From a virus (lineage: Duplodnaviria; Caudoviricetes), in IMG/VR virus record IMGVR_UViG_2974624810_000001, positions 1-64,000 of that record: a stretch of 64,000 bases of DNA, one strand, 5' to 3'. The position numbers and the translations under genes are program-made. The notes under the pieces were generated by a model, which did no database searches, had not been told where the DNA came from, and saw only the letters and a program-made list of their open reading frames with translations. Of this stretch, positions 1 to 53,316 are shown in pieces. Position 1 is the first letter of the stretch, and every line of letters begins with the position of its first letter.

Positions 1-779
1 GTGGGGGATATATCGAAGGTTTCGTAAGCATTATCCCCCACATTCTAAGGTCTAGCAGGCATCTGGCCCCCAATTCGAAGGCAAATAGACCTCAGAAGCA
101 TCGAAATTCTGCCCCCAAAATGCCTCAAAAACAGGAAAAATCACGATATTTCACCCTCAAAACGGACATTTTGCCCTTAAAATGGCCCAAAATCCTGCAA
201 TTTTGACAAGCATTCGTAAAGAGACCTGGATTCAAGGGGAATCGGGCGGCAATCCATCAAATCTAGCCATCATATCCCCCGAAAATTAGGCATTCTTCGT
301 AAATGGCCCCAACATTCGAAGGTTAATCAGGCTCAGAAGCCTATGAATCGCAGATGCGTTCTTACGAATCTAAGGAAGGGTGTCGATTCTCCCTATATAC
401 ACAACCATAGAATGATATTGAAAAACCCGGCAATCTGAAGAAGCCTTCGTAAATGAACTAGGTAGGTATCCATATATTATAGGGAGGGTATCAGTGTATT
501 GTATATAGGGGACAAGGGCACCTACGACTGCCGGGCCAATAATTTGTCAGTCATGTATATAGCAGAAAGGCACCCCGAAGGGTGCCTATTTTTATGAACT
601 CAAAATCTCTGCAAAAATCTTCAAACTCCCCAGAATTTCAGCCTTGACTTAAAGGGCAAAATCCCTGGAAAATTTGAGGCTCATCGTAAACGGGAAAAAT
701 TCGGACATAGGGGACAAATCAACGTCCAGATGGATAGTCATTATGTTAGTTAGCCTAGCTAAGGTGTCCGCCCCGGACA

Positions 780-870
780 TTGAAAGGTCCCCAGGGAGAG
801 GCCGACCTTCCTCTAATTAAGCCCTTGCCAGAATGACTGATAGGGCCCCTGGGGACACACTTTGTACTAC
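780..870 (-). ncRNA. Candidate small structured RNA (three-way junction)
   Basis: Own promoter at 905-877 and no ORF. Helices 787-796/847-856, 797-801/810-814 and 821-825/842-846. Confidence 0.5.
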
Positions 871-917
871 TCTTCTATGTTAGCAAGGCAGTGTTACCTT
901 GTCAACATCACTTTAGG

Positions 918-1127
918 TCACCATTCCAGCTCGTCTTCCACGCAGTAGTGGGACACGAACGGAACGACCCATCGGGTATTGAGAAGATGACCCCTCTCCG
1001 TCCACAGAGTCAGAGTTGCAGTCTTGGAATCGAACTCGATTCCCTTTCCGCCTCCCTGAATGTTATCGAAGATGAGTTCCCTTCGGACTCCCTCTTCCAG
1101 AACGATTACGGTTACCCTGTGAGTCAT
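918..1127 (-). CDS. hypothetical protein
   Basis: 69-aa ORF with AAGGGG RBS. Confidence 0.7.
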   Translation of the reverse strand: MTHRVTVIVLEEGVRRELIFDNIQGGGKGIEFDSKTATLTLWTERGHLLNTRWVVPFVSHYCVEDELEW

Positions 1128-1136
1128 TGCTTCCCC

Positions 1137-1313
1137 TTACACCGGCTCGTTCGGAATGATTACCTCGGTGTTGTCAGCGTTTCGGTAAACCGAGCAGTGA
1201 CCACAGAGAGGTGTCTCAACTTCGTTCAGGTTGAAGGTGCCGATGGCCCTGCGAGCGAAGCAACCTTCGCAGTCTTCGTTCTCTTCCGGACCGAAGGCCA
1301 TGACCATCGCCAT
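1137..1313 (-). CDS. small CxxC...CxxC zinc-binding protein (58 aa, not in ORF track)
   Basis: Manual translation MAMVMAFGPEENEDCEGC...LCGHCSVY...EPV*. RBS AAAGGGG, promoter at 1337. Confidence 0.7.
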   Translation of the reverse strand: MAMVMAFGPEENEDCEGCFARRAIGTFNLNEVETPLCGHCSVYRNADNTEVIIPNEPV

Positions 1314-1439
1314 GTCTTTCCCCTTTCGTTGATACGAGTCTAGCAGACTACGAGGACACCTGTCTACCCTGCCGGGCGATTGTCCGCCCCGGCCAAAATC
1401 CCCCTAAACCCTTTCGGGCTAGGGGGATTGGCGTGCCGC

Positions 1440-2462
1440 TTACGCGGCCTGAGCGAACTCCTGAACCGTCTTCAGGATTGCGTTCTTCTTGGCGTTGATG
1501 ACCGGGTCGAAGCCCGAAGCCGCAATGAACAGGTTGTCGACGTTGCCACCACGGGGCATCCGGTACCAGTCCTGAACCTCAGTGAAGGCGTTCAGTGCAC
1601 CGGCAGCGGTACCCTGGAGAGACTGAGTCGTCTTCGGACCATCACCCGTGTCGGTGAAAATGCCCATGTGGATGTCACGCTTCGACTCCCACTTGACCAT
1701 GCTGCCCTTGACGTCCTTCTCAGGCTTGGGGTACAGCGTGTTGAACAGGGTGTCGAAGTCGTCCTTCGAAACCGGAACGTTGGCCAGTTCGGTCATGACG
1801 CGCTCGAACTCATCCGCGTAGGCGAACGTGATGTTCAGCGCCTCACGAGCCGCAGCCATGCGACCCTCGATGGTCTGAGTGTGACGCATCTTGAACGTCT
1901 GCTTTACGTTGCCACGCAGAGCGAAGTTCAGCGTGTTCTGACAGACGACACGCACGGGCGTGATGCTTGCCTGAACTGCCACGCTTCCGTCGTGAGAGGT
2001 GTTGACCAGCAGATACAGCTTGGTCACGTCGTCGTCACCGATGACGATGTCACGAGAGATGGACAGAGAACCGAAGACCACGCGACCGTCACGGATGCTG
2101 CCCGCAGTCTCCCACGTGCCACCACCTGCGAGGATGCCGTCACCGAAGCCGAACAGCTCTTCGTTCTGGACGACCTTGTAACGCTCGCCCACGGTGGCCA
2201 GAACGTCGTTCTGACCGGTGGTGAAGGGGTTGTCACGAACGACCATGAACGGCTCCGTGACGAAGTTGTACGAGTCGGAGAGCATGCCCACGACGTCCTT
2301 CACGGACTCCAGGCGGACGTTCCAGCCCTTCAGGTGGGCCAGCGTCAGCATCTCGTCGGTGGTCAGCTCACCATCGAAGACGGTTCCGAGCTGGTGCCAC
2401 GCGGGCTCGCTGCGAGTGGCGAACGCGACCTGACCCTTGGAACCAATCTCAAGACCGTGCAT
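1440..2462 (-). CDS. DUF932 (phage/plasmid TIGR03299-like) protein
   Basis: Motifs PAWHQLG, Y..VQN.E.F.F, LL.NTSHDGS and TPVRVVCQNTL. Confidence 0.85.
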   Translation of the reverse strand: MHGLEIGSKGQVAFATRSEPAWHQLGTVFDGELTTDEMLTLAHLKGWNVRLESVKDVVGMLSDSYNFVTEPFMVVRDNPFTTGQNDVLATVGERYKVVQNEELFGFGDGILAGGGTWETAGSIRDGRVVFGSLSISRDIVIGDDDVTKLYLLVNTSHDGSVAVQASITPVRVVCQNTLNFALRGNVKQTFKMRHTQTIEGRMAAAREALNITFAYADEFERVMTELANVPVSKDDFDTLFNTLYPKPEKDVKGSMVKWESKRDIHMGIFTDTGDGPKTTQSLQGTAAGALNAFTEVQDWYRMPRGGNVDNLFIAASGFDPVINAKKNAILKTVQEFAQAA

Positions 2463-2598
2463 TTTTGCCTCCTAGGCAGATTGGTGTAAGGGCCGGTTTC
2501 CCTGCCCTTCGATGTCTCTAGTCTAGCAGTATCAAGGGGTCGTTGTCTACCGGTCGAAATTTGTCCGGCCCGGACAGGGGCCCGAAGGCCCCTGAAGG

Positions 2599-3039
2599 TC
2601 AGAACCGAGCACCAACACCCGAACCGTCCAAACACTGAACGATGTGCTTTGCAGTGCGCAGGTCGATGGTCGGGAAGTTCTGTCGCAGGTGCTTGATGCA
2701 CTGAATCTTGCGCTCCAGGTCGTAGTGGCTGAACTCCGCGTTGGCCCAGATGGTCGCACGCGTCACCAGTTCCGTGTGCGCGTTGTCCGCCTCGAAGAAG
2801 TGCAGTCGCTCACCGTGAGCCTTGCCCTGCTTGTAGCCGTCCTCGAATGCGGCTTCCACGCGCTTGTCGGCCTCCTTGCGGGCCACGTCCCAGATGTTGT
2901 TCTCCACCTCGTTGAGCCGGTTCAGGTGGGCCTCGTAGATGATGCTGGCCACCTCGAACGCCTTCTTCAGGCTCATCTTGATGCCGTTGTTGTGGAAGAT
3001 GCGCACGAGACGGTCCGTGTCGAAGTCGAAGATGCCCAT
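2599..3039 (-). CDS. hypothetical protein with C-terminal ribosomal L7/L12-CTD-like motif
   Basis: KIQCIKHLRQNFPTIDLRTAKHIVQ resembles the L7/L12 pattern KI..IK..R......L..AK..V. Confidence 0.6.
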   Translation of the reverse strand: MGIFDFDTDRLVRIFHNNGIKMSLKKAFEVASIIYEAHLNRLNEVENNIWDVARKEADKRVEAAFEDGYKQGKAHGERLHFFEADNAHTELVTRATIWANAEFSHYDLERKIQCIKHLRQNFPTIDLRTAKHIVQCLDGSGVGARF

Positions 3040-3175
3040 GGAATCCTCCAGTGTCTCTAGGGGGCGTTTCCCCCTTTCGATAGCTCAAGTCTACAGGAAC
3101 AGTGAGGCAGATACAAGCCCAAAGCTAAAGTGTCCGGCCCGGACGCCGGGCCCTTTTGTCAAGGGCCCGGTAGTC

Positions 3176-3511
3176 TCAGGGGTTTGTATTCCCCCTTTTC
3201 AGTATGATTTGGTCGATGACGAACTTTGCATCCATCACTCGATTGTACTCAGCATCCGAACGGCTTTCCTTTCTGCCTGCCCATGCGTTGAACAGAGAGA
3301 TTGCGAATTGCCAGAAAGCCTCCTGTACAGGCTCAGGGTAGGTAGAGACGAGATAGGCGAATGCGTGAAAGTCGAATGAACGCTTATCGAATTCATTGAC
3401 CAGCTTATTCGCCAGACGCTCATAGGAAGTCGGTCGTGGATTTACGAGCCTCGCACCCTCATACATGTCAGGTACGATTAGGCTTGTGCGATGGAAGGGA
3501 CTACGCGTCAC
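3176..3511 (-). CDS. hypothetical protein
   Basis: ORF, with GTG start chosen from the GGGGGAGAGG RBS. Confidence 0.65.
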   Translation of the reverse strand: MTRSPFHRTSLIVPDMYEGARLVNPRPTSYERLANKLVNEFDKRSFDFHAFAYLVSTYPEPVQEAFWQFAISLFNAWAGRKESRSDAEYNRVMDAKFVIDQIILKRGNTNP

Positions 3512-3665
3512 CCTCTCCCCCAAAGTCCTTTGTGGTGCCGTAGCCGTCTGAGACGCTGACAGACAGACCTAGCACCTTTGCCATGAACTCAGCCGTAGCT
3601 GTGGCAAAGGGCCAGGCACTGTCGTGAGCGTCATCATCGGGCGTGTCGATTTCGATGATGACCAT
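3501..3665 (-). CDS. hypothetical protein (54 aa, not in ORF track)
   Basis: Manual translation MVIIEIDTPDDDAH...GEGDA*. Fills the gap after Lsr2 and has an RBS. Confidence 0.6.
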   Translation of the reverse strand: MVIIEIDTPDDDAHDSAWPFATATAEFMAKVLGLSVSVSDGYGTTKDFGGEGDA

Positions 3666-3674
3666 GCCTCTATC

Positions 3675-4196
3675 CTATCGCGCGTGAATCTCTACGTCCA
3701 TCCCCAGCACCACGGGCGAGCCGCACGAGCAGTGGGACAGGCTGTAACCGCACTTGCACGCCTCACGCTCCGAGAGAATGAGACGCTTGCCACGGTACCA
3801 AGCGATGTACTCGGTACGGTGCGAACGGGTGGGGGCAGCGTGCGGACGAACGTCCTTACCGGTCACCTTGACGTGAACACCGGGCGCAGCGGGCTTGACT
3901 TCCGGGTTGTCAGCCTTGTAAGCGGCCAGAACCTCAGCGGAGAGACGCCCACGGGCCGAAACGGTCATGCCCTTGGATGCGGCCCACGCACGGACCGCCT
4001 TCGCATCGAACTGGCCAGCCTTCGGAGCGGCCTTGACGGCAGCACGCTTGACCGGTGCCGCAGCGTCAGAGAAGACCATGCCCTTACCCTCAGCCTCAGC
4101 GATGGCGTCATACGCAGCCTTGGACATACGCCCACGGGCGTCCTTTGCGAGGCCCAGCGAAACAGCGTACGCGCGACGGGTCATGTTGGCAGACAT
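3675..4196 (-). CDS. lsr2: Lsr2-like DNA-binding protein with two RGR-type modules and a Cys-rich tail
   Basis: AKAVRAWAASKGMTVSARGRLSAEVLAAY is the Lsr2 C-terminal domain. An N-terminal RAYAVSLGLAKDARGRMS repeats the pattern. Confidence 0.85.
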   Translation of the reverse strand: MSANMTRRAYAVSLGLAKDARGRMSKAAYDAIAEAEGKGMVFSDAAAPVKRAAVKAAPKAGQFDAKAVRAWAASKGMTVSARGRLSAEVLAAYKADNPEVKPAAPGVHVKVTGKDVRPHAAPTRSHRTEYIAWYRGKRLILSEREACKCGYSLSHCSCGSPVVLGMDVEIHAR

Positions 4197-4318
4197 TTGG
4201 GGTTCCTTCCCTCGGTGATGTCTCTAGTCTACGGCATTGAAGGGGGCAGCGTCAACACGTAAAAATGTCCGCAATGTCCGATTTGCCGGTTGTCCGCCCC
4301 GGCCCGAAGGCCCTAGCG

Positions 4319-5059
4319 TCAAGCCTTTCGACGCTTAGGAACCTTGGACGCGAAACGAATGTCAGCCTTGCCAAAGACGCAAAGGCCACATGTTACACAC
4401 GCACCACCCTTTTCGGTAATGAGGGGAATGCGCTTGGCATTCTCAGGGCAGATAGCGCCAGGCTTACCAGTTTCGGTAAGCATGAATTCCTTACCCTTTT
4501 CATGTGTCTCTGCCAGATAGGCCAGATGCACATCCCTGTACGTGTCTCGTGTGTACAGTGCAGCATCCTCATTTTCACTGTCTACGCTGAGATAGACTGC
4601 GAGATTGGGAATGCCATTGATATAGGACACGTACTCGAAAGAACGCGTGTAAATCCAGAATTGCACGTCAGGGAATGCAAAGGCGGTGATGTTGATTGCC
4701 ATCGCATAATCCGCAGAAAAGATATCCCCATCTGCGTGCCAGCGGAAAAGCTTTTCGACATCTCGCTTTTCACATTCGTCCACGAATTCGCCAACCATCT
4801 CTCCCAAGAGGGAAACCATGTCGGCATAGGAAGCGTCTTTCAACAGCTCCCAATTGTGCAGAACAAGGGCGCGGTAGGCAGGGTATTGCCTTTCCAGCTT
4901 ACCGGCATAGCAGACGGTCTCACAGACCTTTGTCGCGCCAGGGCAGGAATACTCCGTTCCGCTCGGAAGGGAAAAGGCATTGGCGATAAGCGGATTGGTG
5001 CCAGCCTTGTTGGACAGGTTGGCAGTCTTACGGTCCTTAGTCCTCTTGAGTGCAGCCAT
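4319..5059 (-). CDS. GP88-like Cys-rich (putative Fe-S) protein
   Basis: Motifs SCPGATKVCETVCYA, FRWHADGD, FWIYTRS and C-terminal CP...CVTCGLC. Confidence 0.65.
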   Translation of the reverse strand: MAALKRTKDRKTANLSNKAGTNPLIANAFSLPSGTEYSCPGATKVCETVCYAGKLERQYPAYRALVLHNWELLKDASYADMVSLLGEMVGEFVDECEKRDVEKLFRWHADGDIFSADYAMAINITAFAFPDVQFWIYTRSFEYVSYINGIPNLAVYLSVDSENEDAALYTRDTYRDVHLAYLAETHEKGKEFMLTETGKPGAICPENAKRIPLITEKGGACVTCGLCVFGKADIRFASKVPKRRKA

Positions 5060-5174
5060 GACGTTCCCTTCGCTTGACGTAAGACGAGTCTAGCAGACTT
5101 GGAGGACGTAAACAACCCTTTGAAATGTCCGATATGCCCGATGTCCGTCCCGGACAGGCCCGAAGGCCAGTCGG

Positions 5175-5450
5175 TTAATGATTTTCCGGGTGACAGCAAT
5201 TCTTTCCGTCGCAGTCACAGGGCATGTCATGCGCTCCGAAATCACAGCACATACAGTCCATGATAATTACCGAGCGATGCGAAGCGTATGAGATTACATT
5301 CTCTCGCTGCGTTGCCTCGTTGAAGAAATGCACCATTCGCTTTCCGTTGTGAGTGCCAATGTTGCGAGTGATGTGACCAGTCATGTAGTATCCGTTATCG
5401 AAACGGATACGCTCGTGGACGCCGATTTCCGAAAAGGGCTTACGCAGCAT
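5175..5450 (-). CDS. hypothetical protein, Cys-rich C-terminus
   Basis: ORF, with ATG at 5450 and AGGAG RBS. Confidence 0.65.
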   Translation of the reverse strand: MLRKPFSEIGVHERIRFDNGYYMTGHITRNIGTHNGKRMVHFFNEATQRENVISYASHRSVIIMDCMCCDFGAHDMPCDCDGKNCCHPENH

Positions 5451-5748
5451 TGCGCTCCTCCGAACGACTGTAGGGAAGTTCCTTGTTACGAACGATGGTA
5501 GCGAGAGAGACGGCTTGAATGGTCTTGATTCCAAGGAGCCAAGCGGCTACAACTCGGTGCTGACCATTGTACACACAGCCATTCTGGAAATTGATAGGCA
5601 TGTGAATACCCTCACGCTGTACGGACTCAATGAATGCCGGGCTCATTTCGTCCAGAAGACGAGCAAAAAGGTCCATGGTCGACTCGCCATCCTCACGGTC
5701 GGCAAAGTCAGCACGGGCCACGATTGCGTCAATGCTCAGCGTCTTCAT
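5440..5748 (-). CDS. standalone ParB/Srx N-terminal domain protein (leaderless)
   Basis: SVQREGIHMPI...VYNGQHRVVAA. The -10 lies 6 nt before the ATG. Confidence 0.75.
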   Translation of the reverse strand: MKTLSIDAIVARADFADREDGESTMDLFARLLDEMSPAFIESVQREGIHMPINFQNGCVYNGQHRVVAAWLLGIKTIQAVSLATIVRNKELPYSRSEERNAA

Positions 5749-5841
5749 GTCTGTAGTCTAACAGACCAGACAGACAGGCACAAGCCTTTTTCAAAAAGTG
5801 TCCGGCCCGGACATGACTGAGGCCCCCGAAGGGGCCGGTAG

Positions 5842-5901
5842 TCAGAAAAGAATGAGCAGAACGAACAGGGCTACAATGAGCCAGACGTACCTATCAGGCA
5901 T
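5842..5901 (-). CDS. 19-aa hydrophobic micropeptide
   Basis: MPDRYVWLIVALFVLLILF* with GGGAGG RBS. Ends at the cassette hairpin. Confidence 0.5.
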   Translation of the reverse strand: MPDRYVWLIVALFVLLILF

Positions 5902-5971
5902 TCTCACTCGCCTCCCGATACCAAGCATAGTGCGTGTAGAGATAGAAGTGAAGCCATTCCACGAAGTACAT
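5894..5971 (-). CDS. 25-aa aromatic micropeptide
   Basis: MYFVEWLHFYLYTHYAWYREASENA* with AGGAG RBS. Confidence 0.45.
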   Translation of the reverse strand: MYFVEWLHFYLYTHYAWYREASENA

Positions 5972-5978
5972 GACACTC

Positions 5979-6278
5979 CTAGAAGAGTTCGGGTCCGGAC
6001 TCGCTGTCTTCCGTCCAGTCCTCAGTATACTCGATGAACTCGACGTTCAACAACCACGCGATAAGAACTCGGTGGTGTCCGTTGAAAACGGTGTTCGACT
6101 CCACCATGTAGATGATGGGGTCAAGGATGCCCTTGGAGCAAGATTCAACAAACTCAGGGTTTCCCTCAAAGAGGTCGTTGAACTTCTCTTCGAACATCTG
6201 CCAGGTGGTGTGACCCTTGGCCTCAGCATCATTGAAGATAGCCGACTCAATCAGCTTCGCAACAGATACCTTGGCCAT
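5979..6278 (-). CDS. standalone ParB/Srx N-terminal domain protein (second paralog)
   Basis: SKGILDPII...VFNGHHRVLIAWLL. Confidence 0.75.
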   Translation of the reverse strand: MAKVSVAKLIESAIFNDAEAKGHTTWQMFEEKFNDLFEGNPEFVESCSKGILDPIIYMVESNTVFNGHHRVLIAWLLNVEFIEYTEDWTEDSESGPELF

Positions 6279-6389
6279 GTCGCCCTCCTTGGCTTGATAG
6301 GTCTAGTCTACATGCCTACAAGGGCTGTGTCTAGTGCCGGGCCAAATTGTCCGGGGCGGCCAAATGGGGCCCCGGAGGGCCCCATTGGG

Positions 6390-6662
6390 TCAGTCTTCGC
6401 TGGTGTCCTTCTGGCTCACCAGCTTCGCACGGCCGAGCAGAGATGCGTCGGCCTCCTTCCACTTCTTGACCGGCTTGCCGACTCGCACACGGGGGAATCG
6501 AGCGATGATGGCACGCGCACGGGTCTCGTCCGCCTCCAGGATGTCGAACCGCTGGAAGGGGGCACGGGTGGCGATGGGGCCGAACTCGATGTCCACCCCC
6601 TGGACAATCATGGCCACGCGGAGGGAGAGGGCGTCACGGACGGGAACGATACCGGCAATCAT
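6390..6662 (-). CDS. hypothetical protein
   Basis: 90-aa ORF with AGGAG RBS. Confidence 0.7.
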   Translation of the reverse strand: MIAGIVPVRDALSLRVAMIVQGVDIEFGPIATRAPFQRFDILEADETRARAIIARFPRVRVGKPVKKWKEADASLLGRAKLVSQKDTSED

Positions 6663-6789
6663 GTGAACTCCTGAGAGTCGAAGTAAGCTGGGGTATTCAG
6701 TTATCAGAGACTTTGGCAGGAAGGGAAAAACCTCGTTTTGCGAGGCCCGTTGGCCTGTCCCCTTGTGCTACTCACTCTATCAGGCTGAC

Positions 6790-6927
6790 CTAGTTGCAGT
6801 CAACCAGGTACTCAGGCTCGTCGTCCTCATCCGGAACGGTCCAGATGTCCGCCAGCCATCCGCTACGGATGACGCCGGTCGGCTCGTCCTCGACCTTTTC
6901 GACGTTCTTGCCAAGTCGGACGCCCAT
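6790..6927 (-). CDS. hypothetical acidic protein
   Basis: ATG at 6927 with GAGGAG RBS, promoter at 6974. Confidence 0.6.
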   Translation of the reverse strand: MGVRLGKNVEKVEDEPTGVIRSGWLADIWTVPDEDDEPEYLVDCN

Positions 6928-7064
6928 GATGGTCTCCTCTCGTTGGAAGGTTTCCCTCCCTCTCGATGTTCTAAGTCTACACGAAGGATGCGACAGACAC
7001 AACACCCAACATTGTTAGCCTTGCTAAGTGTCCGGGGCGGACACGCCCCCGAAGGGGCGCACCG

Positions 7065-7256
7065 TCAGTCTCCCATGTCGTCCAAGTGGGAGTCGTCGAA
7101 CTCGTCGAAGTCGTCGTCTTCCAGACGCTCGTCAGGCTCGAATTCCTGGAAGGTGTCTTCGAAGATGACCAGCCATGCCAGCCCGAACTTTTCTTCGGGG
7201 TTGCAGATGCCAGTGTGCATCTCGCCGACGTTCGCCTTGCATTCCATGCACTGCAT
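7065..7256 (-). CDS. hypothetical protein (CxxC, very acidic tail)
   Basis: ORF. Confidence 0.65.
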   Translation of the reverse strand: MQCMECKANVGEMHTGICNPEEKFGLAWLVIFEDTFQEFEPDERLEDDDFDEFDDSHLDDMGD

Positions 7257-7257
7257 G

Positions 7258-7473
7258 TCAGACTCCGTCCCACTTGACAGCCACGAACATGTCCACGTTG
7301 TTGACCATGATGGCCAGTCGCGTACCGTTCTTGTCGGTCAGGTTGAACACTTCCTGCTCGCTGTACACGGCATCGTTCCATGCCGTGTTGATGGCATCGG
7401 GAGTCGTGTCCAGAATGTACGCGTCCAGACTGTTGTCACGGCCCTTGAAGTAGAGCTTGACCCTGACGCCCAT
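7258..7473 (-). CDS. hypothetical protein
   Basis: ORF with RBS and promoter at 7519. Confidence 0.7.
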   Translation of the reverse strand: MGVRVKLYFKGRDNSLDAYILDTTPDAINTAWNDAVYSEQEVFNLTDKNGTRLAIMVNNVDMFVAVKWDGV

Positions 7474-7593
7474 GACACATCCTCTCTTCCGGGAGTTTTT
7501 CTCCCTTTCGATGCTCTAACTCTACACGACTATGCTGACATGCGCAAGGTGTCCGGGCCGGTCACCGGGCCCCGAAGGGCCCGGCAGGGAAGG

Positions 7594-7878
7594 TTACTTC
7601 TTCACCTTGGCACGCTTGTTGCTGTGGTTACCGTTCATGAGAGCGGTGAAGTCCAGCATGATGTTCTGCTTGAAGTTGGTCGCTCCGTGGAACTTGCCGT
7701 CCTGGTCACGGATGACGATGCGAACCTCGGTGTTGTCGCTGCCCGGAGTGGTCTTCCAGGTCTCCAGACGGATGCTGTAGGTGGACTTGGAGCCCTTGAC
7801 CTTGAAGCCCTCGGAGATGGCGACGGAGGAAACGATGTTCTTGAACTCGACGTCGGTGGCCTTGGCGAGAGTGACCAT
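7594..7878 (-). CDS. hypothetical protein
   Basis: ORF with AAGGAG RBS and promoter at 7933. Confidence 0.75.
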   Translation of the reverse strand: MVTLAKATDVEFKNIVSSVAISEGFKVKGSKSTYSIRLETWKTTPGSDNTEVRIVIRDQDGKFHGATNFKQNIMLDFTALMNGNHSNKRAKVKK

Positions 7879-8021
7879 GAAAGGCTCCTTAGAGTCTTAG
7901 CTTGGGGTTCCTTCCCCCTTGCTGATAGCTAAAGTCTACACGACTCCAGGGACAAGTACAAGCCCTCAATATGTCCAAATTGCCCGTTGTCCGGGCCGGG
8001 CAGCCCCGAAGGGCCTCCCAG

Positions 8022-8348
8022 CTAATCAGCGAGGATTGCAGCCAGACGCTCACGCTGTGCACGGTCATGCGCACCGGAACGACTGCTGTATTCCTGAAAC
8101 TCACTCACCGTGTCGATGGTGAAGTGTCCGTTTTCGTCCAGCTTGGCCACACGAACGGTGTAGCGTCGGGCGTAGTCGTCGTTACGCTCAGAGGTAACGA
8201 AGAACATTTCCTTTCCCTGAAGAGTGCTGTAGCAGATGTCCGAAATGCGCGAGTTCCACCAACGCATGGTCGAACCGCTGAAGAAGTGGTTACCCTGCTC
8301 CTGAGCGATGGCCTTGGCGTCTTCGATGGAAAACAGAACGTCACGCAT
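8022..8348 (-). CDS. hypothetical protein
   Basis: ATG at 8348 with GAGG RBS, promoter at 8378. Confidence 0.75.
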   Translation of the reverse strand: MRDVLFSIEDAKAIAQEQGNHFFSGSTMRWWNSRISDICYSTLQGKEMFFVTSERNDDYARRYTVRVAKLDENGHFTIDTVSEFQEYSSRSGAHDRAQRERLAAILAD

Positions 8349-8465
8349 GTTGTGTTCCTCTCGCTTGGTGTAAGTAGAGTCTAACACAGTACAAGGGCTC
8401 TGCACAACACCTACCGGGCCTTTTTGAAAATGTCCGACCCGGACAGGGCCCGAAGGCCCTGCCGG

Positions 8466-8795
8466 TTAGGTCAGCTTGGCCAGAAGGGCACTGATGTCAT
8501 GCCTCAACTCAGCCTCGGAACGCATGCCACGCTCCTCCTTCAACTGACGCTCGAAGTAGGCACGCAGCTCGGTCTTGTTGTAGGGTCCGTACACACCCTT
8601 GTCGTCGGTGTAGTTGATTTTCTCGAAGGGCGACGGGCAGGAACAACCGGAGTCGCTTGCCACGTAGTACCGGCCTCGGGTTTCCTTCCACACCATCGTG
8701 ATGTTGAACTGCCAGGACTCATGGTCCCAATCGAAGGAGTCGACGTAGGTCAGGCTGTCCAGCGAAACGCGCTTGGGCTTCGAAAGGTCAGTCAT
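8466..8795 (-). CDS. hypothetical phage protein (DSGCSCPSPFE motif)
   Basis: ORF with GAGGAGG RBS. Confidence 0.75.
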   Translation of the reverse strand: MTDLSKPKRVSLDSLTYVDSFDWDHESWQFNITMVWKETRGRYYVASDSGCSCPSPFEKINYTDDKGVYGPYNKTELRAYFERQLKEERGMRSEAELRHDISALLAKLT

Positions 8796-8928
8796 GATGC
8801 CTCCTCGTTTTCGGTAAGACCAGTCTACAGGACGAATTTTTGAGTCGCAACCCCTCAGACCGATTTTTTAGTCAGAATCCCAAATGCCCGATTTTTAGTC
8901 CGGGCCGGACGCCCGAAGGCGTCCCCCA

Positions 8929-9243
8929 TCACTCCCAGGGCTTCCAGTCAGACCAGTCCGCACCCTCACGGCTTTCGATGAGGATTTCCACCGTGTCACC
9001 CAGATGGTGATTCACGCTGTACAGCGACCGGTAGGGGTGAGACTGGTACTTGCGCTGAGTCTTGGCCCATGCTACCAGCTTCTCAGCCTGCTTACGCGAA
9101 CGACAGGGCCACGCCTCCACACAGACAGCGTAGTTGTACCACCAGTCACCCTCCTCCGCACCACCATAGGCACGGTCCAGCTCATAGATGTTGACCCAGT
9201 GCTTGTTCCGACGACGCTGACCCATACGCAGACCCTTGGCCAT
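8929..9243 (-). CDS. hypothetical phage protein (YGGAEEGDWWY motif)
   Basis: ORF with AAGGAGG RBS. Confidence 0.75.
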   Translation of the reverse strand: MAKGLRMGQRRRNKHWVNIYELDRAYGGAEEGDWWYNYAVCVEAWPCRSRKQAEKLVAWAKTQRKYQSHPYRSLYSVNHHLGDTVEILIESREGADWSDWKPWE

Positions 9244-9345
9244 TTCCGCCTCCTTGTCGATGACCTAAGTCTAACAGAAGCCTAGGACAGATTCAACATG
9301 TCTAACAGGATTGGCAGTCATGTCCGCCCCGGACAAAAATTCAGA

Positions 9346-9414
9346 CAGAAATTCACCCCTATTTTCTAAGGAAATCTAGGCGAAAATCCTTGAAAATAGG
9401 GGTGAATTTTTTCT
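9346..9414. repeat. long AT-rich inverted repeat
   Basis: 18-bp perfect arms 9349-9366 / 9392-9409, plus inner AAGGA/TCCTT. Confidence 0.85.
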
Positions 9415-9432
9415 GCAATTGTTTTTCGAAGG

Positions 9433-9645
9433 TCAGAAGGGCACGATTTCGTTGTTTCCATCGCCACAAAGGCAATGTTTCGAGTGTCGAGCCCCAATCG
9501 GGGTCATTCCGGACTTTTCGAACCGAACAATCATGTCCGGGAACTGAGAAGTCGAAATCACGCCCGATTCGGTACGCAGACCGGCCCTTTCCAGAATCAA
9601 AGAGCCGGAATGCGTGAATCTAGGGGCTTTCTTCCTACGAAGCAT
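9433..9645 (-). CDS. hypothetical protein
   Basis: ORF with AAGGGG RBS. Confidence 0.55.
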   Translation of the reverse strand: MLRRKKAPRFTHSGSLILERAGLRTESGVISTSQFPDMIVRFEKSGMTPIGARHSKHCLCGDGNNEIVPF

Positions 9646-9660
9646 TTTTGCCCCTTTTGG

Positions 9661-9804
9661 TTACGCCAGTTCGGCCATGTGCGGGTAGGCGTCCCAGTCG
9701 AAGCCGTCCACACGGTCCGCATCCTGCACGTCACTCACAGGGAGGGACATGGTGGTGAAGACACCCGCATCACGGGCCTGCTCAAGAAGGTCACGAAGGT
9801 CCAT
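9661..9804 (-). CDS. hypothetical protein (47 aa)
   Basis: ATG at 9804 with GAGG RBS, promoter at 9837. Confidence 0.65.
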   Translation of the reverse strand: MDLRDLLEQARDAGVFTTMSLPVSDVQDADRVDGFDWDAYPHMAELA

Positions 9805-9949
9805 GGTGTGTACTTCCTCTCGCTTGGTGTAGTACCAGTCTACACAGGTAGGGGTGTGGATGCAAGTACCCAAAATCGTGGGAATTTTTAGGGGCGCTTC
9901 GTACACGCGCGGGGGAAATGTGGGGAATCTACGTAATGCCCCGTAAAAG

Positions 9950-10075
9950 GGCCTATATTCCCTATGTACCATATGTCCGTTTTGGCAGGGTTGGGTATGG
10001 TATGTACTACTATGCCCTATATGTACCCCTATGTATGGGTATGTACCCAATGTCCGTTTTGCCCCATATGCCCGA
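9950..10075. repeat. TATGY-rich short tandem-like repeat tract
   Basis: Repeated TATGTAC/TATGCCC/ATGTCCG units. ATGTCCGTTTT occurs twice. Confidence 0.7.
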
Positions 10076-10192
10076 TGTCCGCCCCGGACAGACTTTACCT
10101 AAACGTTACCTAGATTCTTGCCTGATTAGGGTTGTATCCGGGCCGGGCATGGGTAGGATGTAGGCATAGCCACTACAGACCAGGGAGACACG

Positions 10193-10630
10193 ATGAACGC
10201 CACCACCACCCACCAGTGCCGCTACCAGAACGAGACTGCCGTTAGTTCCCGCATCCGTAGGCAGATTCTCTCTACTGTTCTCTACCTTGCTAGCCTTACG
10301 GGCCACAGTGACGGGGTCACGTGGGCTACGTGCGTAGGGTGTGGGGAGCGTGCACACGTGGGGGGTACGCCTAGGGCTATGGACACGTTCAACCTGGGAC
10401 ACGTGCTGGCAGATGCTGAGGGTGGCATGTACTGCCCTTGCAACTTGCTTCCCCTGTGCAGGCAGTGCAACGCTGACATGGGTAAGGAAACCCTTACTGA
10501 CGTACTCATTCCGGTTTACGACAATCGCGAATGCTGGAACGGTAAGTTCATGGCCGACCCTGGCACCGTGGCTGCCAAGCCTGAGAGCAACCGGGGACGT
10601 GCCCGCTGGAACGTCCCTGTGAGCGCCTGA
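10193..10630 (+). CDS. HNH endonuclease
   Basis: CVGC...GHVLADAEGG....NLLPLCRQCN. Confidence 0.8.
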   Translation: MNATTTHQCRYQNETAVSSRIRRQILSTVLYLASLTGHSDGVTWATCVGCGERAHVGGTPRAMDTFNLGHVLADAEGGMYCPCNLLPLCRQCNADMGKETLTDVLIPVYDNRECWNGKFMADPGTVAAKPESNRGRARWNVPVSA

Positions 10631-10644
10631 GAGCCTTTGAGAGT

Positions 10645-10672
10645 GCCCCCTAGGGTAGTTGTCCTAGGGGGC
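10645..10672 (+). terminator. hairpin after HNH
   Basis: GCCCCCTAGG...CCTAGGGGGC. Confidence 0.6.
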
Positions 10673-10860
10673 TAACTCATGCCCGTAGACGGGCGTACAG
10701 AGCTTTTGACAATGCTTTTCAGATGGCCTGCCTGCCCTCGTGGAACCTTCCCCGGAGAGTTTGTCAAGGGTTATGGGCGCACTATCCAAATTGTTACAAA
10801 GCTATGCGGAGCATGTATCATACATCACCAAAAATTACTAACATTTGGTGTACTTTTATG

Positions 10861-11103
10861 TTACTCGTTAGTAATGTCAGCTTCGCTGACTGCTTCATCG
10901 CTCATATCGAATGACGGAGCAGGTCCGAATATTTTGCCCATTGCGTGTCCCTGATAGATTACGTCTGCTTCGCTTGGATTTACTCCTCTTGCAATGCAGG
11001 TAAGCATATCGTATATACGCATAAGCAGTATTGTATGTACTACTATGGAGGTGTCTTCATCGAAAACACCGGCCGTTTCTTCATTCTCTGTCTTGTCAGT
11101 CAT
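10861..11103 (-). CDS. hypothetical protein
   Basis: ORF with RBS. Confidence 0.65.
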   Translation of the reverse strand: MTDKTENEETAGVFDEDTSIVVHTILLMRIYDMLTCIARGVNPSEADVIYQGHAMGKIFGPAPSFDMSDEAVSEADITNE

Positions 11104-11246
11104 CTTCGTCCACCTCTATGACGAATGTATGTCCTTCTTCTTCGTCAAAGCAGTCTGTGTATACATCTCGTACCGGGCCGATTATCTCGCTTGTGCCGAT
11201 TTGTACAAGGTAATCAGGATGCTTTGAGAGAATTTCAATAAGTTCC

Positions 11247-13190: not shown

Positions 13191-13507
13191 ACGTTATTCC
13201 TATCCAAGACACCGTGAACACAATCGGCATCTATATCGTCGTAGTTTGACAGCAATCGCAACTCTGAGACTGCTTCCTTGTACCGGCGATTTTCTGTCAG
13301 ATAGTTGTCAGCATCGTTGGCCCACCGGTAGGCATCTTTGCGAAGTGCTAGGAACTTATCACGAGGAATCTCTTCATTGGGCAAGATATCAAATTCAACC
13401 CATACTGAGTACTCCTCCTCTGTCATTCCTAGAAACTCGTGGAGTGACATTTTTGTGTCACTGTCATGCCACTTGTCCACGAGGTCTTCTAGTTGTCCTC
13501 TGTTCAT
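13187..13507 (-). CDS. hypothetical protein
   Basis: ORF with LHEFLGMTEEEY motif. Confidence 0.7.
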   Translation of the reverse strand: MNRGQLEDLVDKWHDSDTKMSLHEFLGMTEEEYSVWVEFDILPNEEIPRDKFLALRKDAYRWANDADNYLTENRRYKEAVSELRLLSNYDDIDADCVHGVLDRNNV

Positions 13508-13900
13508 GTCCTCAGTTTGTCACGCGCCGGGGACATTGTCAAGACGTGACACTGCCTTGTTCACCGTATTCACTGGGACATCTGTCCCCTTGATGTCACA
13601 AATTTGCTTATGAAGTTCTGTCCTGTCCGTGACACCCTTGGCCCATAGGTCTCTGACCAGTGCGGACACTGATTTGTCCTTGCTTATGTCACTTGTCCTG
13701 GTGACACTTTTTGTCACCTTCTTAGTGACATTGTCCGTGACAGGGACATCAGGTGTGGTGACAGCAAATTCTTTTGTCACTTTGTCCTGGGACATGTCCC
13801 GTGACATGTCATTTGGCTTGTCACGCTTGTCCTTCTTGGTTGTCACCTTGTCACGTGGTTTTGTCCTCTGAAGAGGTTCATTCGTGACACTCGTGACAAC
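13441..13900. repeat. dense TGTC(A/C) / (T/G)GACA motif array
   Basis: About 40 hand-counted TGTC/GACA in 460 bp, against about 4 expected. They occur on both strands and in several frames. Confidence 0.85.
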
Positions 13901-52800: not shown

Positions 52801-53316
52801 ATGGGAAAAGAAAAGAAGCAGAAGGCAAAGCCTATGCGCAAATTCTTCTTTCTCGATGGCGTGCCTCACAAGAAACTGCAAATTAATCGTGGAGCAGACA
52901 CTCTGCTCGCATGGAACTTCATTGAGCACAAGAGAGTCCAATACGTTTGGTCTGTAGCAAAGAGAAATATGCAGAAAGCATTCTATGGCGCTGACGTTCA
53001 GAAAATGCTCGGCAGGCATAGAAACAGTCTTTATCTATACACCAAAGAAGGGCTCATCAGAAAGCCTTTCAGAACGTATACTCTTGATGGAGAGTCCCGA
53101 CCAGGAATCTATCTATGGTCTGAGAAGGATGTCCTTGACCTTCATGAGCTTCTTGTAGAAAGAGGCTATGGAGCAAAAAGAAAAGACGGCTTGCCTACAG
53201 CAACACGCCTTCCTTCCAGAACGGAGCTACTTGCCATGATGCGCAACGATGTGGTTCTATACACGAAGAACAAGAACGGCGACTTTACGCCGGTCTGGCA
53301 AGAGAATGATTGGTAG
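52801..53316 (+). CDS. helix-turn-helix DNA-binding protein
   Basis: ADVQKMLGRHRNSLYLYTKEGLI (MerR/excisionase-like wHTH). Confidence 0.7.
   Translation: MGKEKKQKAKPMRKFFFLDGVPHKKLQINRGADTLLAWNFIEHKRVQYVWSVAKRNMQKAFYGADVQKMLGRHRNSLYLYTKEGLIRKPFRTYTLDGESRPGIYLWSEKDVLDLHELLVERGYGAKRKDGLPTATRLPSRTELLAMMRNDVVLYTKNKNGDFTPVWQENDW

Follow-up and report, generated by a model that had tools for sequence, protein, structure and literature searches.

A lineage-specific palindrome between terminators and early promoters in the terminal repeat of Streptomyces phage Mildred21, and its candidate partner, a phage-encoded HNH-family protein

The window analysed here, a stretch of 64,000 nucleotides, is the left end of the genome of the Streptomyces phage Mildred21, a member of subcluster BE1 (PMC5764925), and its position 1 is also position 1 of the genome. 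Near this end lies a series of small genes, and their promoters are preceded by a common palindrome of 15 bases, TGTCCG-N3-CGGACA. Which factor reads this element, and to what effect? A preliminary description of the locus proposed a CRP-type activator bound to one face of the DNA helix. The comparison with related phages confirms the element and points elsewhere: the palindrome may be the recognition site of a phage-encoded, sequence-specific DNA-binding protein, most likely a 145-amino-acid protein of the HNH family, acting on the early cassettes. This reading is a serious candidate and the one favoured here, and it is held with reserve.

The genome of Mildred21 comprises 131,976 bp and carries an exact direct terminal repeat (TR) of 10,818 bp, identical at both ends. 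The closest matches of its first 12 kb are Streptomyces phages of cluster BE, with LilMartin and MulchMansion at the top (88%). About 21 small open reading frames (ORFs), all leftward on the minus strand, and about 15 promoters are located in the TR, together with one rightward gene at its inner end, which encodes the HNH-family endonuclease (145 aa; 10193–10630, plus strand), the candidate partner of the palindrome. The combination of an exact long TR, many small genes, and host-type promoters identifies the region as a long-terminal-repeat early (host-takeover) module, and the TR early genes are probably host-takeover genes. Read along the minus strand, the cassettes share one layout. The stop codon that ends the previous gene is followed by a GC-rich hairpin, whose loop is usually TTCG, and by the palindrome; after a spacer come the −35 hexamer, 17–18 nt, the −10 hexamer, a ribosome-binding site, and ATG. 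The early promoters are promoters of the host RNA polymerase (HrdB type). Their −10 hexamer is the Streptomyces-type TAGACT (TAGAGT once, at 7519), with a TGN extension at many of them, and the −35 variants are TAGACA, TTGACG, or TTGTNN, several being weak, e.g., TTGTAT and TTGTTT. Thirteen such units of a stem-loop terminator and an early promoter, with hairpins of −7 to −29 kcal/mol, are inserted between the small ORFs at 1337–9335.

The palindrome is a two-fold symmetric inverted repeat (6-N3-6) situated 31–75 bp upstream of the −10 hexamer in each of 13 pairs. The coordinates of all 13 pairs given in the preliminary description proved correct, the plus strand reading AGTCTA (ACTCTA at 7519) at the −10 positions and the palindromes lying where they were placed, and the distances of 44, 42, 43, 65, 55, 44, 43, 55, 31, 55, 53, 75, and 53 bp were reproduced. 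The view of the element as a symmetric, sequence-conserved site, every listed copy of which lies upstream of the −35 hexamer of a host-type promoter, was likewise borne out. The exact sequence TGTCCGNNNCGGACA occurs eight times in the window (0.00 expected). With up to two mismatches allowed there are 20 matches (2.2 expected), 18 of them within 765–10149; 16 of these are intergenic sites and two, at 2267 and 2784, lie inside a gene. In the whole genome, all sites with no mismatch or one are confined to the two TR copies. By base composition, about one chance copy is estimated per Streptomyces genome. The half-site word is oriented with the promoters, since the plus strand of the TR contains TGTCCG 25 times and CGGACA 10 times. 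Three sites, at 765, 10076, and 10135, were added to the earlier list of 13.

The relatives of Mildred21 give the strongest indication of where the partner is encoded. Six lineage versions of the palindrome occupy the same cassette slot in 22 phages and viral contigs, and nearly all cassettes of one genome share a version. Version T, TGTCCG-N3-CGGACA, is found in Mildred21, LilMartin, Angela, Jay2Jay, Evy, Braelyn, Paradiddles, Daubenski, and one viral contig, and version Tp, TGTCSG..CSGACA, in Tribute, Samisti12, and EGole. Bmoc and Riptide carry version G, GGGCCG-CCC-CGGCCC. Version G2, TGGCCG-CCC-CGGCYA, is shared by Karimac, Wofford, Yaboi, Enygma, StarPlatinum, and one viral contig. Tomas has a version of its own, CGACCG-GCC-CGGTCA, as does Coruscant, GGCGCC-C-GGCGCC, the latter being also present, with other outer bases, in one viral contig. 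Three different versions are represented among the phages that were isolated on S. griseus; the version thus does not go with the host. As all cassettes of a genome switch jointly, their hairpin stems and spacers differ, and three versions occur on S. griseus, the factor acting in trans on the palindrome is therefore likely to be encoded by the phage.

Among the phage genes, the one for the HNH protein follows the palindrome most closely. It is present in the TR of all 87 related phages and has a palindrome of the phage's own type upstream of it. The HNH tree matches the palindrome type exactly, with four label changes, which is the minimum, against at least seven in 2000 shuffles. The clade uniting Bmoc and Riptide (G) with the Karimac type (G2) has support values of 97/93, that of Coruscant and the contig sharing its core 100/99, and the Tp clade 100/100. 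The palindrome versions follow this tree and not those of the neighbouring TR genes: in the Lsr2 and DUF932 trees Bmoc and Riptide fall inside the T-type phages and T is interleaved with Tp, and an approximately unbiased test on the Lsr2 data rejects the G+G2 clade (p = 1e-7). When alignment columns separating four T-type from two G-type genomes were counted across the genome, the HNH protein reached 27% and a 90-aa TR protein 31%, the median being 1.9%. The catalytic core of the HNH protein, CxxC...GH...N...CxxCN, is invariant across lineages, the variable parts being about 25 aa at either end of the chain. Its matches to Pfam HNH_5 and HNH are below the Pfam cut-offs, and its predicted model has an HNH fold.

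Other proteins were considered as partners of the palindrome. The 90-aa protein (6393–6662) co-varies between T and G; nevertheless, it is a poor candidate because it is absent from Karimac and its model is PII/ferredoxin-like with a disordered tail, with no DNA-binding fold. A helix-turn-helix (HTH) protein encoded at genome positions 65730–65873 shows no co-variation, being 96% identical in Bmoc, which has another palindrome, and 66% identical in Jay2Jay, which has the same one. In the FtsK-like translocase the C-terminal winged helix-turn-helix (wHTH) domain is identical in both palindrome types, and 4 of its 605 columns discriminate between them. A 171-aa HTH_17-like protein was set aside on the grounds that its recognition region is identical in T and G phages; no relative of it was found in the PDB by sequence. 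Searches of the TR-encoded proteins against Pfam and PHROGs returned no regulator, and none of the 20 proteins examined with Pfam contains a CRP/FNR-like or other activator-type domain. A genome search for the MerR_1 family gave no match, and no CRP/FNR-family protein is annotated in the relative LilMartin.

If the palindrome is indeed read by the HNH protein, this would bind the two half-sites as a dimer; made from the first-expressed DNA, it would occupy all of the approximately 15 cassette boundaries and so act on all of the early module simultaneously. The effect favoured over activation is a damping, insulation, or shut-off of early transcription, perhaps together with strand nicking, because the earliest promoters must fire before a phage protein exists and already have good core elements. 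A further-reaching view, possible but rather doubtful, is that the HNH-family protein and the palindromes form a co-evolving protein/operator (or nick-site) pair that governs the TR early module of cluster BE and has at least five or six exchangeable specificity groups. A nuclease fold would then have been recruited as a master regulator of early transcription, or as a site-specific nickase marking every cassette boundary, and such a pair could set compatibility or exclusion between co-infecting relatives.

Several points weigh against assigning the palindrome to the HNH protein. Its model matches generic HNH folds only, and to our knowledge HNH proteins are not described as transcription regulators. 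The co-variation appears to stem from few independent events, mainly the joining of Bmoc and Riptide to the Karimac-type clade and the monophyly of Tp, and joint inheritance of the inner repeat end, followed by homogenisation, could also produce it. Since most of the small proteins have no detectable family, there is room for other DNA-binding candidates of the phage. Finally, the site is held more tightly to the terminator than to the promoter, and all its versions are extremely GC-rich in genomes of 48–55% GC, which is also compatible with a structural role.

The last two points lead to an explanation without a dedicated protein, in which the GC-rich block or hairpin reinforces or insulates U-poor terminators, or forms a barrier to the spreading of an Lsr2-type silencer from AT-rich phage DNA. 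In the window the position of the palindrome is fixed relative to the upstream terminator and not to the promoter: the gap to the terminator hairpin is 0–2 nt at 13 of 15 sites, and three promoters not preceded by a terminator, those with −10 at 6774 and 9837 and the one reported at 905–877, also have no palindrome. Canonical T-tract terminators show no enrichment in the region, which also counts in favour of this explanation. The palindrome does not behave as part of a terminator, though. In Coruscant a TTTTTG tract lies between hairpin and palindrome at several terminators, placing the palindrome outside them, and sites 10076 and 10135 have no adjoining hairpin, which makes it a DNA element at the cassette boundary. 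Its exact sequence is kept within a genome and the neighbouring stems and spacers vary freely. Perfect palindromes account for 17 of the 77 unique sites from eight phages; in this set the promoter-proximal half CGGACA is conserved at 98/100/100/94/100/81% and the distal half much less. The pair 5-11 is complementary in 10% and broken in 90% of the sites in the Tribute/Samisti12/EGole (Tp) group, imperfect copies (5 of 15) fold with only −1.4 to −1.8 kcal/mol, and the tails after the palindrome are not consistently T-rich. The marks of a second-hairpin intrinsic terminator, i.e., a stable stem kept by compensatory change and a U-tract, are not seen at these sites. The palindrome is selected as a DNA sequence and not as an RNA hairpin, and a purely structural role is accordingly given a low probability. 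The terminator–palindrome–promoter unit could instead serve as a mobile cassette, providing homology for the shuffling of early genes and kept uniform by gene conversion, in the manner of the promoter-early stem-loop (PeSL) motifs of T4-like phages, whose architecture it resembles (PMC4122927). Compared with Braelyn, identity jumps from cassette to cassette, from 100% at 5982–6662 to 27% in the neighbouring 5443–5748; environmental contigs show cassette replacements with junctions at 889/1381, 6364/6680, and 7058/8367; and at the promoter 2520 the upstream half differs between Mildred21 and its relatives. Nevertheless, the ends of blocks of at least 96% identity fall at control regions in 7 of 20 cases (27.5% expected), i.e., with no enrichment, gene conversion of exactly 15 bp between diverse flanks is unlikely, and the tracking of the HNH tree by the palindrome is left unexplained, so that shuffling appears an improbable reason for the element.

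The remaining two explanations invoke a protein other than the HNH one. A dimeric activator, of the host or borne in the virion, could bind the palindrome, recruit RNA polymerase through the C-terminal domain of its alpha subunit (class I), and turn on the early region. This fits the symmetry of the site and its location upstream of the −35 hexamer, with centres near −45, −57, −68, −79, and −89 relative to the predicted starts; several −35 hexamers are weak, and in Coruscant the position is fixed, with a constant gap of 47 nt from the palindrome to the −10. The helical phasing put forward in the preliminary description is present in this genome: for the 13 distances the Rayleigh R is 0.84 at 10.5 bp and 0.88 at 11 bp, and none of 5000 random sets, drawn as uniform distances of 28–78 bp, was as high. 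These distances do not form an independent sample: the promoters represent a few paralogous spacer architectures, a basic form of 42–44 bp and longer forms with extra modules, which are largely the source of the clustering. In all ten relatives with enough sites the best period is 10.2–11.3 bp, with R of 0.46–0.89; in five of them (Braelyn, Paradiddles, Daubenski, Bmoc, and Karimac) the phasing is weak (R 0.46–0.53) and not significant after the period scan. Distances at orthologous promoters differ widely (53–55 versus 61–62; 75/49/53; 55/57/51/40; 65/54/62; 42/64/73), shifts of 3, 5, 7.5, and 8 bp being as frequent as whole turns, and 9 of 21 pairs of distance states are within 0.15 turn of whole turns (30% expected, p = 0.15). 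Loss of phasing in related phages, named beforehand as an outcome that would speak against the activator, is thus partly the case; what stands is a real positional preference, with no strict face-of-helix rule preserved in evolution. Further, three promoters have no site (−10 at 6774; 905–877, where a scan of the window gave no motif match upstream; −10 at 9837), no TAGACT promoter follows the site at 765, transcription from the earliest promoters has to begin ahead of any phage protein, and the TR-encoded proteins contain no activator-type domain. A host CRP-like factor is argued against by the joint switching of all sites between lineages on the same host species and by their following the phage HNH gene. 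An activator of this kind is therefore considered unlikely, although its symmetric site upstream of −35 and the phase bias in this genome hold. Alternatively, host BldC or a wHTH protein of its type, such as the phage 171-aa HTH_17-like protein, could read CGGAC in tandem units and in the inverted pair and bend the upstream DNA. In its optimised form, the site of BldC consists of AATTCGGAC in head-to-tail copies with a period of 9 bp, and the BldC footprint at whiI extends from −50 to −80 (PMC5859096). Units composed of an A/T-rich tetranucleotide and CGGAC, often 9-bp tandems, end about 10 nt before the −35 hexamer at the promoters 4226, 5087, and 7933 (AAATCGGAC|ATTGCGGAC, ACATCGGGC|ATATCGGAC, and ACAACGGGC|AATTTGGAC, respectively) and match AATTCGGAC|AATTCGGAC. 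WWWWCGGAC is 12.6 times denser in the TR than in the rest of the genome, the boxes are retained in Bmoc, Riptide, and Coruscant despite their differing palindromes, and the identity of the recognition region of the 171-aa protein in T and G phages would agree with such a constant reader. The palindrome itself should not be bound by BldC, since a change of AATT to GGCC abolished binding (PMC5859096) and the flanks of the palindrome halves are GC-rich, with no A/T-rich segment 5′ of CGGAC. Moreover, boxes occur at only 3 of the 13 promoters, the G-type and Coruscant palindromes contain no CGGAC, and the HTH_17 match is weak (E = 0.003–0.06). A BldC-type reader of the palindrome is for these reasons improbable.

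Since the accessory boxes are kept in Bmoc, Riptide, and Coruscant, their reader appears to be a conserved factor other than the partner of the palindrome, probably a wHTH protein of the BldC kind. Head-to-tail 9-bp units of the BldC type, AATTXXXX(C), are found in the boxes at 4267–4284, 5127, and 7973. All the A/T-rich plus CGGAC units are located at 4267–4284, 5127–5135, 7973–7981, 9975–9983, and 10052–10060 on the minus strand and at 159–167 and 698–706 on the plus strand, and they also occur upstream of the promoter with −10 at 9837. A literature search for CGGACA sites in Streptomyces yielded one relevant match, the BldC paper (PMC5859096), and otherwise mostly primer sequences. It is also worth mentioning that the 171-aa protein (52801–53316, plus strand), which has a weak excisionase/MerR-like (HTH_17) wHTH in its middle part, is encoded where the replication module begins, shows high conservation within the cluster, and is annotated as hypothetical in the relatives.

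The individual control regions, all on the minus strand, differ in their spacer modules. The one at 1337–1395 comprises the −10 TAGACT at 1337–1342, the −35 TAGACA, and, at 1381–1395, the palindrome TGGCCGGGGCGGACA in the minus-strand reading. The region 2520–2576 (−10 at 2520, −35 TAGACA) has a perfect palindrome at 2562–2576, and 3088–3145 (−10 at 3088) one with a single mismatch at 3131–3145. Upstream of an Lsr2-like gene, the region 4226–4305 (−10 at 4226, −35 TTGACG) carries its tandem 9-bp units at 4267–4284 and the palindrome at 4291–4305, the distal half of which overlaps the terminator stem. Perfect palindromes are also present at 5142–5156 in the region 5087–5156 (−10 at 5087, with tandem units) and at 5799–5813 in 5755–5813 (−10 at 5755). 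In the region 6305–6362 the −10 is at 6305, the −35 is TAGACA, and the palindrome occupies 6348–6362. The region 6974–7043 (−10 at 6974) has, besides the perfect palindrome at 7029–7043, a second palindrome, TTAGC-AAG-GCTAA. The 31-bp class is represented by 7519–7564, where the palindrome at 7550–7564 is 2 nt from the −35 and the −10 at 7519 is TAGAGT. The region 7933–8002 (−10 at 7933, with tandem units) has its palindrome at 7988–8002, and 8378–8445 (−10 at 8378) a perfect one at 8431–8445. The 75-bp class, at 8822–8911 (−10 at 8822), contains GACTAAAAAATCGG-type repeats and a palindrome at 8897–8911 that overlaps the terminator stem; the distance at this promoter is 49 or 53 bp in relatives. 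Lastly, in the region 9268–9335 (−10 at 9268) the perfect palindrome at 9321–9335 is 16 nt from its terminator hairpin. A negative example is the internal promoter TTGACT-18-TAGAGT at 6774–6803 (minus strand), which overlaps the end of the upstream ORF, has neither terminator nor palindrome, and is conserved as far as Coruscant.

Three sites lie outside this series. The perfect palindrome at 765–779 follows the last leftward transcription unit and is adjoined by TTAGC-TAG-GCTAA. Another perfect palindrome, at 10076–10090, and a degenerate copy at 10135–10149 are situated where transcription diverges, between the HNH gene and the first leftward promoter (−10 at 9837). The degenerate copy falls in the spacer of a putative promoter, TTGTAT-16-TAGGAT. 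This region (9900–10190) is dense in GGTACAT and GGGTATGTAC repeats and CGGACAT boxes besides its two palindromes, and is conserved across the cluster; it may act as an origin, as a stop signal for injection, or in packaging. The second small palindrome, TTAGC-N3-GCTAA, was seen on the promoter side of the main one at two sites (about 7015–7027 and about 750–762), and in Coruscant an analogous inverted repeat, AGATG-N7-CATCT, occurs at nearly every promoter. The region 828–11214 of Coruscant contains 16 copies of GGCGCC-C-GGCGCC, and those preceding promoters are all 47 nt from the −10 TAAGCT; given this invariant gap, its cassette is far more uniform than that of Mildred21. In Mildred21, the TR segment 900–9900 is mosaic at the scale of single cassettes between relatives, and contigs from soil and rice-paddy metagenomes, obtained from public sequencing runs at low depth, represent near-identical phages with whole cassettes replaced. 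No transcript starts, ends, or levels emerged from the public runs. Outside the TR, the 3′ half of a DUF2637 membrane-protein gene (13441–13900) contains TGTCC, a word overlapping the palindrome half-site, 14 times against 1.0 expected, and TGTCAC words are also common there; codon repeats may account for part of this enrichment, since a low-complexity stretch rich in D, K, V, and T (DKVT-like motifs) is encoded.

In the literature searched, no published account of transcription control in the cluster BE phages, which are large lytic phages of Streptomyces, was found. The preliminary description did not recognise the motif as a known site of a Streptomyces regulator, and no description of the element was met with in the papers searched; those found on these phages mention neither the palindrome inserted in the cassettes nor its specificity groups nor the link to the HNH protein. 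One cis element common to essentially all early promoters offers a direct handle on the switching of early, probably host-takeover, genes. Paired with a co-evolving phage protein, the lineage versions of the element would make up a system of specificities that is open to testing and exchangeable between phages. Should the HNH link hold, a nuclease fold would here be put to uncommon use, or a nicking system like that of T5 would be coupled to promoters. The cassettes of promoter plus operator may also serve as compact orthogonal expression parts for Streptomyces.

Among known systems, the class I sites of CRP/FNR are likewise two-fold symmetric, located upstream of −35, and at distances favouring whole helical turns. 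They differ in half-site and spacing, which here are TGT-N9-ACA with a GC-rich core; in addition, no CRP-family protein was identified in the TR of Mildred21, the phasing is not conserved among orthologues, and the sequence is specific to the phage lineage. Small dimeric HNH (beta-beta-alpha-Me) endonucleases of the Hpy99I type combine a zinc-binding HNH protein with a short palindromic target that has an odd central spacer, as the candidate pair of Mildred21 would. Here, by contrast, the putative targets belong to the phage's own DNA and precede promoters, and the structural match of the HNH protein to such nucleases is weak and not specific. The long TRs of SPO1 and T5, of about 10–13 kb, hold about 20 small genes and many strong early promoters for the host polymerase, each with a terminator, transcribed towards the genome end, which is also the plan of the Mildred21 TR. 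We know of no upstream palindrome shared by the promoter sets of these two phages. Shut-off is ascribed to gp44/50/51 in SPO1 and to A1 in T5, and the hosts and proteins are unrelated to those of Mildred21. The TR of the latter has been compared in size with those of SPO1 and T5 (PMC5764925). The direct-repeat operators of BldC (PMC5859096) share with this locus the 9-bp head-to-tail units of an A/T-rich tetranucleotide and CGGAC at about −47 to −70, a likeness that does not extend beyond the accessory boxes of three promoters; the A/T-rich part needed by BldC is absent from the halves of the palindrome. The PeSL motifs of T4-like phages (PMC2839356, PMC4122927) also consist of a stem-loop terminator and an early host-type promoter repeated between small variable early genes, and in both systems the gene content differs cassette by cassette between relatives. 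In the Mildred21 array, which is confined to a long TR and shows no enrichment of breakpoints at the motif (7 of 20 versus 27.5%), a 15-bp palindrome is inserted between the stem-loop and the promoter, and its lineage-specific versions track a phage gene.

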